From: a virus
Lineage: Duplodnaviria; Heunggongvirae; Uroviricota; Caudoviricetes
IMG/VR virus record: IMGVR_UViG_2879748301_000007
Reading direction: 5' to 3' (one strand)
DNA length: 19,942 bases
Made by a program: the position numbers. Positions within the stretch are counted from its first letter, which is position 1, and every line of letters begins with the position of its first letter. Of the stretch, positions 12,001-16,437 are shown piece by piece.

Positions 12001-15000
12001 CTGCGGCAGGGGGGCGGCGAATTGTCTCTGGTACCAGGCAAGGACTGGAACAATCAGCAGAATATCTATCACCGTTGGTTGAAAGGTGAAACGAAAGCGC
12101 AAAGGGAAAAAATTCAGAAACTGATCCCTGCGGTTCTGGCAATTCTTCCGCGTGAGCTGCGTCACCGACTCTGTATCTTCGATACCCTGGAACGCCGTGC
12201 ATTACTGGCGGCGCAGGAAGCGTTGAGTACGGCAATTGATGCGCATGATGATGCTGTCCAGGCCGTTTACCGGAAAGCACATTTCAGCGGTGGTGGGTCG
12301 CCCGGCGATTCTGTCGTAGTGCATTGATTGAAATTAATCGTGCCGGATTGTTTTGTTCGGTATCAGTTAAATGTAACGCTGCGAGCGTTACAAGGTGAAA
12401 ACAAATGGCTTCAAACTGGATAAAGCTCGAGGTTATTACGCCGGATAAGCCGGAAATATTCAGGCTTGCTGAGATTCTGAATATTGATCCAGATGCCGCA
12501 TTAGGGAAGGTTATTCGCTTCTGGGCATGGGCGGATCAACAAATGATAGACGGTAATGCAGATTGTAACGCTCGCGGCGTTACAAAAAGTGCAATAGATC
12601 GCATCACTTTTATGTCTGGTTTTGCTGATGCGTTAATTCAGGTTGGATGGCTGGTCGAAAATGACGGTGGGCTTTCTCTACCTAACTTTGAACGTCATAA
12701 CGGAAAAAGCTCTAAAAAACGGGCGGTTACAAACGAGCGAGTAACAAAAATACGCGAACTGAAACGAAAAGGTAACGCTGCCAGCGTTACACAAACGGAT
12801 CAAAAAGCGTTACCAGTGGAAGAGGAAGAGGAAGATCTAAATACTGATCTCCCCCTAAATCCCCCTCGCCAAAAACGAGCGTCTAAAAAATTCGAGCCGG
12901 AGGCTATTGAGCTGCCCGATTGGTTGCCGGAAACACTCTGGCATGAGTGGGTCCGGTTCAGACAGGCATTGCGAAAACCGATTCGAACGGAGCAGGGCGA
13001 TACGGGAACTGGAAAAATTCCGTCAGCAGGGTTTTACACCTGAGCAGGTGATTCGACACAGCATCGCCAATGAATACCAGGGCCTGTTCGCGCCGAAAGG
13101 TGTTCGGCCTGAGACGTTGCTCCGACAGGTTAACACCGTCTCGTTGCCGGACAGTGCGATCCCGCCAGGCTTCAGGGGGTAACGGACCATGAAAAATATT
13201 GCGACAGGCGGCGTTCTGGAACGCATCCGCCGACTGACCCCGCAACATGTAACCGCCCCATTCAGAACGGTAGCGGAGTGGCGCGAGTGGCAACTTGCTG
13301 AAGGCCAGAAACGTAGCGAGGAGATCAACCGCCTGAATCGCCAGTTGCGGGTGGAAAAAATTCTGAATCGCTCAGGCATCCAGCCGTTGCACCGTAAATG
13401 CTCGTTTGCGAATTACCAGGTGCAGAACGACGGCCAGCGATACGCGTTAAGCCAGGCGAAATCCATCGCCGATGAACTGATGACCGGGTGTACAAATTTT
13501 GCGTTCAGCGGAAAACCTGATACCGGGTAGAATCACTTAGCGGCAGCTATCGGGAATCGCCTGCTGAAAGACGGTCAGACAGTGATTGTGGTTACCGTGG
13601 CTGATGTTATGAGCGCCCTGCACGCCAGCTATGACGACGGGCAGTCAGGCGAAAAATTTTTGCGGGAGCTGTGCGAAGTGGATCTGCTGGTTCTTGATGA
13701 AATTGGCATTCAGCGCGAGACGAAAAACGAGCAGGTGGTGCTGCACCAGATTGTTGATCGCCGGACAGCGTCGATGCGCAGCGTGGGGATGCTGACAAAC
13801 CTGAACTATGAGGTGATGAAAACATTGCTCGGCGAGCGGGTGATGGATCGCATGGTCATGAACGGCGGGCGCTGGGTTAATTTTAACTGGGAGAGCTGGC
13901 GTCCGAATGTTAGCCATTCGAGGGTTGTTAAGTAGTTTCAGGAGGATTTATGGCGAAACCTTTTACTCCCGAACAGCGGGAAGAACTGAAGACGCGAATT
14001 GTGGAACTCGTGCATCAGGACGGTCGGGTCACGATTCGGCAGTTGTCCGATGAAACAGGTATCAGTCGTGCGTCTGTCGGTCGCTTATGCATAGAACTGG
14101 TCGCAAGTGGTGATGTATATAATTCTGGCTACGGCTTATTCCCGTCTGAACAGGCTCGCAAGGACTGGCAAAGCGCCCGCAAAAAACTCTCGAGAGTAAA
14201 GGTGAGGAAACCGGTTGTTGTTGATCCGGACCTTATCTGGTCATTACCTGACGGAGAAATACGCCGCTACGACAGGCGCCTGAATATAATCTGTCGCGAG
14301 TGCCGGAAGAGCGAAGCTATGCAGCGTGTACTGGCTTTCTATCAGGGTAATTTTCAGGAGGCGATACTGTGAATGAAATTAGCTATCAGGCTTCAATTAC
14401 CGCTGGCATTCGCATCAAAGGAGAGGAGCATGGAAATAAAACCAGAAGATGAGTTAAGCAATATCGTTTTATTTCCGATAAAAGAGGATGACCCTCGTAA
14501 TCAGGTTAATTTTCTTTATAAGCCATCGGAAAGACCATATTGCCATCACGCCTCTGTACGGGTTGACGAAAAAGAGCGTCAGGTCCGCTGTAAAATCTGC
14601 GGTGCGGTTGTGGAGCCGTTTGACTGGATGCTCTCTGTGGCAAAAAGAGAAACCAGACTGGCAGATGATGTAAGGCTATTGCGCCAGGAGGAACAGGAAA
14701 GGCGGAGAAATATAGAAAAGCTGATACAGATTGAGCGTAACGCGAAAGCGCGGATACGCAGGGCGACAAAATCCAGAACTGAATAATTAAATTTAGCACT
14801 GTTAAAAATTTAATCCTTAACCGGAGGGATTTCTGCACCCTCAAATCATCAGGAGACCGCCCGAAAGGGCGGGGAGCAGTCACACATCTGTTTCCGATAG
14901 CCCCGTTCTAATGCTACACTCTTTGATATTTTTATGACCTCAATAAACATATTTATGACAGTTGCTGATTTCAAACGGCCCAAATTGGAGCTCCCAAACG

Positions 15001-16437
15001 GGGCAAACAAACTACTACTGCACTCTTGCTGTGCTCCATGTTCCGGTGAGGTGATGGAGGCGCTTCAGGCCTCGGAAATCGACTACACCATCTTTTTCTA
15101 CAACCCGAACATTCATCCTCAGAAAGAGTATTTAATTCGTAAGGATGAGAATATTCGCTTTGCTGAACAACACGGCGTGCCGTTTATTGATGCTGATTAC
15201 GACACAGACAACTGGTTTGAACGAGCCAAAGGAATGGAATGGGAGCCCGAACGAGGGATCCGTTGCACCATGTGTTTTGACATGCGTTTTGAGCGGACAG
15301 CGCTGTACGCCGCTGAAAATGGTTTCAGTGTGATCAGCAGTTCACTGGGCATTTCACGCTGGAAAAATATGCAGCAGGTTAACGACTGTGGGCGGCGAGC
15401 CGTCGCGCATTATCCGGGCATGGTGTACTGGGATTATAACTGGCGCAAGCAGGGCGGCTCGTCCCGTATGATTGAAATCAGCAAGCGCGAAAAATTCTAT
15501 CAGCAGGAATATTGTGGCTGTGTGTATTCTCTGCGCGATACCAATCTACACCGCAAATCTCAGGGACGCCCTCTTATCAAAATTGGTCAACTCCACTACG
15601 GTAAAGAAGAGAAGGAGTGATTTTATGGGGCACCTTTCTGATTGATTTCATATTGGCGAGGTAAGTAGAATGACTGCGGGTGCTTGAGGCTATCTGCTTC
15701 AGGCATGAACACCAAAAGGCAGATAGAGAAAAGCCCCAGTTAACATTACGCGTCCGGCAAGACGCTTAACATTAATCTGAGGCCAATTTCATGCTTTGCA
15801 CATGTAGGTTAGCCTCTTACATGCCGAAAGGCAAGGAGAAGCAGGCTATGAAGCAGCAAAAGGCGATGTTAATCGCCCTGATCGTCATCTGTTTAACCGT
15901 CATAGTGACGGCACTGGTAACGAGGAAAGACCTCTGTGAGGTACGAATCCGAACCGGCCAGACGGAGGTCGCTGTCTTCGTAGACTACGAATCCAGGAAG
16001 TAAGAGTGACCGGGTGGGGAGCTGATCCCATCCCCGCCCACCTCTGATGTGTCAGGCATCCTCAACGCACCCGCACTTAACCCGCCCATCGCTGTGATCT
16101 CTCAGCGTTTCGGCGGGTTTTTTGTTGTTTATTTCCGGTGAATTTGATTCGCGCACCTTCGCAGATAGAATCGACTCACTTAAGTAGCGCGCAGGGAGAA
16201 GAGGGATGGACCCTGAAGTGGCACACTGAATTTGGCCACCTGAACAGAGGTGATATGCTCACCTCAGAACAACACAGGTGCTCCAATGAAAAAAAGAAAT
16301 TTTAGCGCAGAGTTTAAACGCGAATCCGCTCAACTGGTTGTTGACCAGAAATACACGGTGGCAGATGCCGCCAAAGCTATGGATGTTGGCCTTTCCACAA
16401 TGACAAGATGGGTCAAACAACTGCGTGATGAGCGTCA

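Follow-up and report, generated by a model that had tools for sequence, protein, structure and literature searches.

The window analyzed here is a 19,942-nucleotide (nt) stretch of DNA from the IMG/VR record IMGVR_UViG_2879748301_000007 (Caudoviricetes), and is Shigella flexneri sequence with a Rac-like prophage remnant riddled with insertion sequences (IS). The remnant carries an intact queH gene, whose product belongs to a family of epoxyqueuosine reductases formerly known as DUF208. The analysis showed to which family the product belongs, that its ligands are intact and its fold is kept, and that the gene is under purifying selection in a phage context, along with how common it is and where it came from. 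We consider it probable (roughly 0.7) that the encoded QueH is a functional, cobalamin-independent reductase, predicted to convert epoxyqueuosine (oQ) to queuosine (Q) on host tRNA and to back up the host enzyme QueG in lysogens. The protein is 100% identical to one of S. flexneri SFBU1023, in which the immediate neighbors of the gene also match.

Coding sequence, cysteine ligands, and selection

An open reading frame (ORF) of 228 amino acids (a.a.) at 14934-15620 on the plus strand had been singled out in an earlier, sequence-only reading of the window, and the ORF listing of the window recovered it at exactly these positions. Its extent holds, but its start does not: an alignment of upstream regions together with a scan of 82 loci placed the conserved start at the second in-frame ATG, giving a queH coding sequence (CDS) at nt. 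14955-15620 (plus strand, 221 a.a.). The same ATG is used by the NCBI Prokaryotic Genome Annotation Pipeline (PGAP) in its annotation of Escherichia coli FDAARGOS_944 (221 a.a.). The upstream ATG (nt. 14934) is confined to the phage-borne clade described below and is not seen in chromosomal orthologues.

The protein matched the Pfam model of epoxyqueuosine reductase QueH (PF02677/IPR003828) with 220.2 bits (E = 2.6e-65) over profile positions 1-174 of 175, against a gathering cutoff of 23.5 bits, so that the HMMER comparison with DUF208 suggested in the sequence-only reading gave a significant match to nearly the full profile. It also aligned with the Thermotoga maritima QueH (7lc5) at E = 3e-22 over query residues 27-203. 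The two proteins belong to the same family over their full length (~30% identity, template modelling (TM) score 0.82; PDB 7LC5, 7LC7, and 9DEU) and have in common the CC...CxxC...CxC cysteines, while the window QueH is longer by ~20 residues at its N-terminus and by ~25 at its C-terminus, and is borne by a phage. With the Pfam match, the T. maritima alignment, and the seven cysteines described next, the description of the protein as DUF208/QueH-like with the characteristic Cys motifs was borne out, and we are all but certain that the gene is a QueH.

All seven family cysteines are kept in the window QueH, namely C32, C33, and C36 (CCAPC), C111 and C114 (CxxC), and C194 and C196 (CGC); the loss of these ligands on alignment, which had been named as the outcome that would speak against the assignment, was not seen. 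When 86 sequences were aligned (the query, the T. maritima QueH, and 84 diverse full-length family representatives drawn from a search of 1.8 billion proteins), Cys was in the majority at all seven positions, and all seven are invariant in 24 close homologues. At the position of C36, the T. maritima enzyme instead carries Asp13, the residue mutated in PDB 9dco (D13N). In the 86-sequence alignment, Cys occupies this position in 71 of 74 non-gap residues, making the T. maritima Asp13 the outlier. The details of the ligand roles are based on the titles of the PDB entries (C9S and D13N mutants) and the Cys alignment.

The AlphaFold2 model of the window QueH (predicted local distance difference test score 78.9, predicted TM score 0.80) was consistent with the sequence matches. 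Compared against the PDB with Foldseek, its top five matches were all T. maritima QueH (TM 0.82, root-mean-square deviation 2.9 Å), and the next were generic PP-loop/adenine-nucleotide alpha-hydrolase folds at a TM of only ~0.3.

Annotation of the family is uneven. An NCBIfam profile search of the window QueH returned no matching model, which is not evidence against membership; with no match in NCBIfam, the name that PGAP gives to queH must stem from another rule. PHROGs family 3217, labelled 'unknown function', recognized the protein with 456 bits, with a profile that begins at QueH residue 41, beyond the first Cys motif, and so leaves out CCAPC, probably owing to truncated gene calls among its members.

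The gene is under sustained purifying selection. By the Nei-Gojobori method, the ratio of non-synonymous to synonymous substitution rates (dN/dS) of queH was 0.064 against Escherichia phage HannyBb (dS 0.18), 0.037 against E. albertii (dS 0.15), and 0.026 against Enterobacter. Values of 0.026-0.064 exclude a decaying passenger.

In the representative library, we also noted QueH domains (54-59% identical to the query) near the C-terminus of proteins of 719-1398 a.a. (P0005, P0009, P0015, and P0019), which may represent fusions, gene models of a eukaryote-like kind, or errors of gene calling.

Phage carriage, prevalence, and origin of queH

The closest E. coli match to the window (99.8% nucleotide identity) is FDAARGOS_944, in which queH lies in an intact prophage beside ybhA. 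This prophage starts with int-xis and continues through recE, cI/Cro-YdaT, a hypothetical gene, ydaV, DUF977, a second hypothetical gene, queH, and hokD; there follow a third hypothetical gene, DUF1367/1364/1133, four tRNA genes, and the lysis, terminase, and head genes, with nin/Q-like genes coming after hokD. The gene sits in the same slot in phage HannyBb, the only one of 50,697 GenBank phage records with a high-identity queH (96% at the amino-acid level), where it is labelled 'hypothetical protein' (PP925841.1, nt. 33011-33697; L002:8050-8736). At least 189 IMG/VR viral or proviral contigs carry queH, with 80 retained loci at 99-100% protein identity. We did not rely on 'Acinetobacter phage MD-2021a' (328-379 kb, 78% identity), whose size and 'putative prophage protein' labels suggest bacterial contigs.

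In the window, queH stands directly upstream of hok on the same strand, where the Qin prophage has relBE, an arrangement that the sequence-only reading had pointed out and that agrees with K-12 Qin, in which relB-relE lie directly upstream of hokD. Among 84 proviral loci, the upstream neighbor of queH was DUF977 in 59 and a Zn-ribbon ORF in 15, and the downstream neighbor was mok/hok in 63 and a Dcm-type methylase in 13. In E. coli O157:H7 strain Z1767, whose prophage includes tail, integration, replication, lysis, and head genes, a cytosine methyltransferase comes after queH, and a restriction enzyme of the NgoMIV family comes next (L166:20851-22861). The slot right after queH is thus a hot spot for addiction and defense cargo. 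A search of QueH itself and of the Zn-ribbon ORF against PADLOC-DB gave no match to models of defense systems, and an anti-phage defense role for queH was dropped on this ground.

Lying between conserved modules (DUF977 on one side and hok or the nin region on the other) and variably present among related phages, queH is phage cargo. This had been put forward as probable, and finding the gene in the same slot in the intact FDAARGOS_944 prophage, HannyBb, the O157:H7 prophage, and the IMG/VR contigs makes it firm.

The CDS matched 995 of 5,426 complete E. coli genomes (~18%), with 985 of the 995 matches covering at least 80% of it, and is essentially single-copy (95-99% identity). All 40 of the E. 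coli matches listed are named 'epoxyqueuosine reductase QueH' in RefSeq, and include O157:H7, O104:H4, and avian pathogenic E. coli (APEC) strains. As queG is found in every one of the 5,426 genomes, each queH-positive strain has both enzymes. This distribution bears on whether the gene is a neutral hitch-hiker, carried without benefit to phage or host because it is linked to the hok/sok addiction module and to the junctions between modules in lambdoid phages. Such a reading would account for the tight linkage to hok/sok seen in the proviral loci, the presence of queH in just 18% of genomes, and the constant company of QueG. It is hard to square with the dN/dS of 0.04-0.06 among phage-borne copies at a dS of ~0.15-0.18, with the near-complete length of almost all the E. 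coli matches, and with the annotation of all 40 listed ones as QueH, and we consider it very unlikely.

The sequence-only reading had called a QueH-type gene unexpected here on the grounds that enterobacteria normally use QueG. The second half of this statement agrees with the universal presence of queG in E. coli; the first is not supported, or at best only in part, given the queH of nearly a fifth of E. coli genomes and the wide occurrence of chromosomal queH in the Enterobacterales. In a scan of one genome per species, QueH of 78-92% amino-acid identity was found in Enterobacter, Scandinavium, Kluyvera, Kosakonia, Siccibacter, Erwinia, Pantoea, Serratia, Rahnella, Ewingella, Pectobacterium, Dickeya, Brenneria, Proteus, Providencia, and Sodalis, as well as in more distant taxa. 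Chromosomal copies such as those of Enterobacter hormaechei, Scandinavium, Kluyvera, Erwinia, Serratia, Pectobacterium, and Proteus also begin at the conserved ATG and have the -10-like element upstream of it. Phage neighbors were seen only at the Escherichia and Shigella loci. Unlike the window copy, which lies in a lambdoid prophage beside hok/sok, the chromosomal copies sit among ordinary genes with no phage genes, and their flanks are conserved by genus: Dcm and an HD protein in Erwinia/Pantoea, YCII and TonB in Serratia, an AI-2E transporter and DUF969 in Rahnella, Dus and an SBP_5 protein in Pectobacterium, and Fe-ADH in Proteus. Contexts in the Enterobacter group vary, yet are likewise non-phage. 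Pantoea sp. NPDC088449 appeared in the match lists of both QueH and QueG, indicating dual carriage outside E. coli.

In a neighbor-joining tree, the phage-borne copies (S. flexneri, two E. coli strains, E. albertii, and HannyBb) formed one tight clade, so that the phylogeny suggested earlier does group the window QueH with phage-borne homologues. The clade is embedded among chromosomal QueH sequences from Scandinavium, Enterobacter hormaechei, and Kluyvera, and the wider QueH tree roughly tracks family taxonomy. The simplest reading of these sequences is that QueH was ancestral in the Enterobacterales, went missing from the Escherichia core genome, and was re-introduced by a lambdoid phage with an Enterobacter-like copy. 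An ancestor of the Rac/Qin-type lambdoid phages would have taken queH from an Enterobacter-like chromosome along with ~50-60 nt of its native upstream DNA, which would have brought an extended -10-type promoter element along, and the gene would since have traveled as 'moron'-like cargo, with the replication module (DnaC-like, DUF977) on one side and the hok/sok or restriction-modification cargo on the other.

Proposed role in lysogens and expression of queH

To our knowledge, E. coli and Shigella cannot make cobalamin de novo; given that QueG needs this cofactor, a prophage copy of QueH would allow Q34 to be completed without B12. The enzyme, an Fe-S protein with no need for cobalamin, would reduce oQ34 to Q34 in tRNA-Asp, tRNA-Asn, tRNA-His, and tRNA-Tyr, and so would let lysogens, or the phage in lytic growth, finish the modification when B12 is unavailable. 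QueG (YjeS) carries out the same reaction, oQ34 to Q34, in the same genomes (PMC4646009, PMC9508795), but is not homologous to QueH (PF13484 and PF08331 versus PF02677). It depends on cobalamin and two [4Fe-4S] clusters and belongs to the core chromosome of E. coli, unlike the variably present queH. QueH, for its part, has been described as an iron-dependent, non-orthologous alternative to QueG (PMC9508795, PMC13443448). According to the account of Frey 1988 given in PMC4646009 and PMC6850298, E. coli and Salmonella need cobamide to reduce oQ to Q, and oQ34 persists in the tRNA of cells in B12-free glucose-salts medium. That the gene modulates tRNA queuosine status, one of two roles offered in the sequence-only reading, would therefore seem its best interpretation.

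Within this proposal, we infer that QueH acts on host tRNA, that a lysogen expresses the gene from the gene's own promoter, and that a B12-sparing benefit results. Taken further, the prophage would alter the host epitranscriptome: QueH made from its own promoter would let E. coli and Shigella lysogens (including O157:H7, O104:H4, and APEC) finish Q when B12 is scarce, while non-lysogens would stall at oQ. We put this forward tentatively, as something rather short of an even chance.

The DNA upstream of queH suggests that the gene brought its own promoter. Phage-borne and chromosomal copies have no alignable upstream sequence in common apart from an invariant GCTAC core, which sits in an extended -10-type sequence, TGCTACA(C/A)T, 39-44 nt upstream of the ATG in both. 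The scan of 82 loci found TG(C)TAC(A/C/T)(A/C)T at -39 to -44 in Escherichia, Enterobacter, Kluyvera, and Scandinavium, and -10-like hexamers at similar distances in other genera. In the window, the element reads TGCTACACT (nt. 14912-14920, plus strand), 35 nt upstream of the conserved ATG, and is the putative promoter of queH; an altered form for comparison in a promoter-reporter fusion is TGCGGCACT. The left edge of the queH cassette falls at nt. 14884-14911 (plus strand). The listed E. coli matches of 95% identity (H4-H15) begin at query position 85, that is, at nt. 14884 of the window, and as homology with most E. coli prophages runs only from ~14884 onward, the cassette includes the -10-like element. 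The chromosomal copy of Enterobacter hormaechei has in common with it ~30 nt upstream of the element.

Several findings weigh against expression from this promoter in lysogens and against a benefit from it. Despite the conserved TGCTACACT, a strict scan for the sigma-70 consensus upstream of queH called no promoter, the -35 being poor, and no terminator was called between queH and hok, such that queH may be read through from the early-right operon of the phage and be silent in lysogens. No Shine-Dalgarno sequence was recognizable by inspection before either ATG (nt. 14934 or 14955). The gene is missing from 82% of E. coli genomes, and the benefit of the last Q step is itself uncertain, since a difference in decoding between oQ and Q is not established.

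These observations invite a different role for the same enzyme, as a lytic auxiliary transcribed from the early-right promoter (pR) only after induction, which would raise Q34 to tune the translation of phage late genes and be silent in lysogens. The absence of a called promoter or terminator around queH fits this role, as does the position of the gene on the same strand within the early-right string of Cro, YdaT, O-like, DnaC-like, DUF977, queH, and nin/Q, and phage infection of Shewanella has been reported to raise Q via the oQ reductase step (preprint 10.64898/2026.03.05.709803). However, the -10-like element is conserved at chromosomal orthologues, which have no phage promoter, and has been kept by the phage copies. 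The window queH is, moreover, intact and identical to that of a second S. flexneri genome, in a prophage unable to enter the lytic cycle, its ydaV being split, its recE truncated, and its lysis/late region cut by IS elements. On balance, we find a purely lytic role unlikely, and favor QueH as a backup to QueG in the lysogen.

The other role offered in the sequence-only reading, a phage nucleoside-modification pathway, found no backing. It would have QueH act in 7-deazaguanine-type hypermodification, on phage DNA or a free nucleoside in place of host tRNA, and could appeal to the use of preQ0 and archaeosine (G+) chemistry in the DNA of some phages (PMC6884629) and to the frequent presence of DNA methylases or a restriction-modification system in the neighboring slot. 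The phage clusters of DpdA with FolE, QueD, QueE, and QueC (Hutinet et al. 2019, PMC6884629) are, like queH, phage-carried genes of the queuosine/7-deazaguanine pathways, but their products make preQ0 or G+ for incorporation into DNA, whereas the queH prophages carry a lone, Q-specific, last-step enzyme. DpdA/TGT-like genes, FolE, QueC, QueD, and QueE were all absent from the PGAP/GenBank annotation of three queH-positive phage or prophage stretches, which covers most of each element, and no such gene was among the 40 gene clusters seen most often within 6 kb of queH in the 84 proviral loci. A DNA-modification role is thus unsupported. Further, oQ is made only on tRNA, by QueA (PMC9508795), and both the close identity to housekeeping chromosomal QueH and the strong purifying selection argue against a new substrate. 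We consider this role extremely improbable.

The QueH family, its reaction, and its structure are already known, and RefSeq already names the window gene, such that the practical significance of our findings is modest. In the searchable literature, we found no account of lambdoid prophages carrying QueH as cargo in E. coli or Shigella, and Hutinet et al. (2019, PMC6884629) reported no QueA, QueG, or QueH homologues in the viruses analyzed. If lysogens do complete Q in this way, the window gene would encode the first enzyme on record that is carried by a phage and specific to the tRNA-queuosine branch. Queuosine status affects NAU/NAC decoding and has been linked to metal and oxidative stress, biofilm, and virulence (PMC9508795, PMC10570037). 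A mobile, B12-independent bypass in about one fifth of strains would make tRNA modification depend on a strain-variable determinant, one that studies of K-12, which is without queH, would miss. There is also an annotation gap to close, given the 'unknown' label of PHROG 3217 and the 'hypothetical' gene of the HannyBb record. The main value of the present analysis lies in correcting the view of QueH as unexpected in enterobacteria, fixing the start codon, and providing a testable B12-bypass hypothesis.

Neighboring features of the prophage remnant

The stretch between the Zn-ribbon ORF and queH holds a 73-nt intergenic element (nt. 14800-14873, plus strand) with a CCGCCC-GAAA-GGGCGG hairpin. 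It recurs at ~95% identity in Stx2a-converting phages, ArgO145 (early-left region), Rac-SA53, and others without queH. We considered it as part of the queH cassette and rejected this, given its recurrence in lambdoid phages without queH and at other genome positions; it may be a generic intergenic sequence of lambdoid module junctions. A riboswitch or structured leader upstream of queH was likewise set aside, with no Rfam match and a non-significant z-score of only -1.6 for the predicted fold of nt. 14787-14935.

The four tRNA genes of the FDAARGOS_944 prophage (Ile, Arg, Thr, and Gly; L001:15410-15720) lie between the Q-like and lysis genes, a region lost from the S. flexneri window, in which no tRNA genes were found. 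The possibility that QueH acts on phage tRNAs was discarded, as none of these four is a Q substrate and the window encodes no tRNA.

The genes around queH are in part decayed, in agreement with the description of the region as a prophage remnant: recE is truncated, ydaV is split, IS elements have inserted, and a fragment of Rz is inverted. After the part of the window with IpaH and IS elements, the gene order is a recE fragment, an Ash/Rha gene, a cI-like repressor, Cro, YdaT, and the split DnaC-like ydaV, and it continues with DUF977, a 137-a.a. Zn-ribbon ORF, queH, mok/hok, an IS element, and the inverted Rz fragment. The replication gene ydaV (nt. 13189-13935, plus strand) is broken into two ORFs (nt. 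13189-13530 and 13582-13935); it is a single gene of 747 nt in FDAARGOS_944, and queH downstream is intact in the window despite the split. Next come the DUF977 gene (nt. 13950-14372, plus strand; Pfam DUF977, 116 bits) and the Zn-ribbon ORF (nt. 14373-14786, plus strand), the latter named for a weak match to Zn_Ribbon_TF.

Downstream of queH, the hok/sok regulatory region (nt. 15678-15853, plus strand) was recognized by the Rfam sok model RF01794 with 117 bits, against a gathering score of 59. The mok/hok toxin ORF (nt. 15791-16003, plus strand) contains hok itself (nt. 15848-16003, 51 a.a.), annotated as hokD in FDAARGOS_944. Right after hok, the prophage is interrupted by an IS3-family insertion sequence (nt. 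16250-17454, plus strand) with HTH_Tnp_1 and rve ORFs identified by Pfam, next to which lies the inverted Rz fragment. In all, the IS content of the window comprises three IS3-family copies, a further rve-type transposase ORF, this IS3-family element, and an IS66 element.

At its 5' end, the window opens with an ORF for an IpaH-type type-III effector (nt. 1-1812, plus strand; LRR_TTSS and NEL E3-ligase domains by Pfam), which runs off the end of the window. This effector ORF adjoins the decayed prophage and has IS elements on its flanks. Finally, the window has an Ash+Rha antirepressor-like ORF (nt. 7781-8737, minus strand), and Rfam identified a C4 antisense RNA (nt. 8390-8477, minus strand; 75.7 bits) and isrK (nt. 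8502-8578, minus strand; 61.5 bits), both of which lie inside or just 5' of this ORF, an arrangement that suggests P1/P7 immI-type antisense control in a Rac-like prophage.

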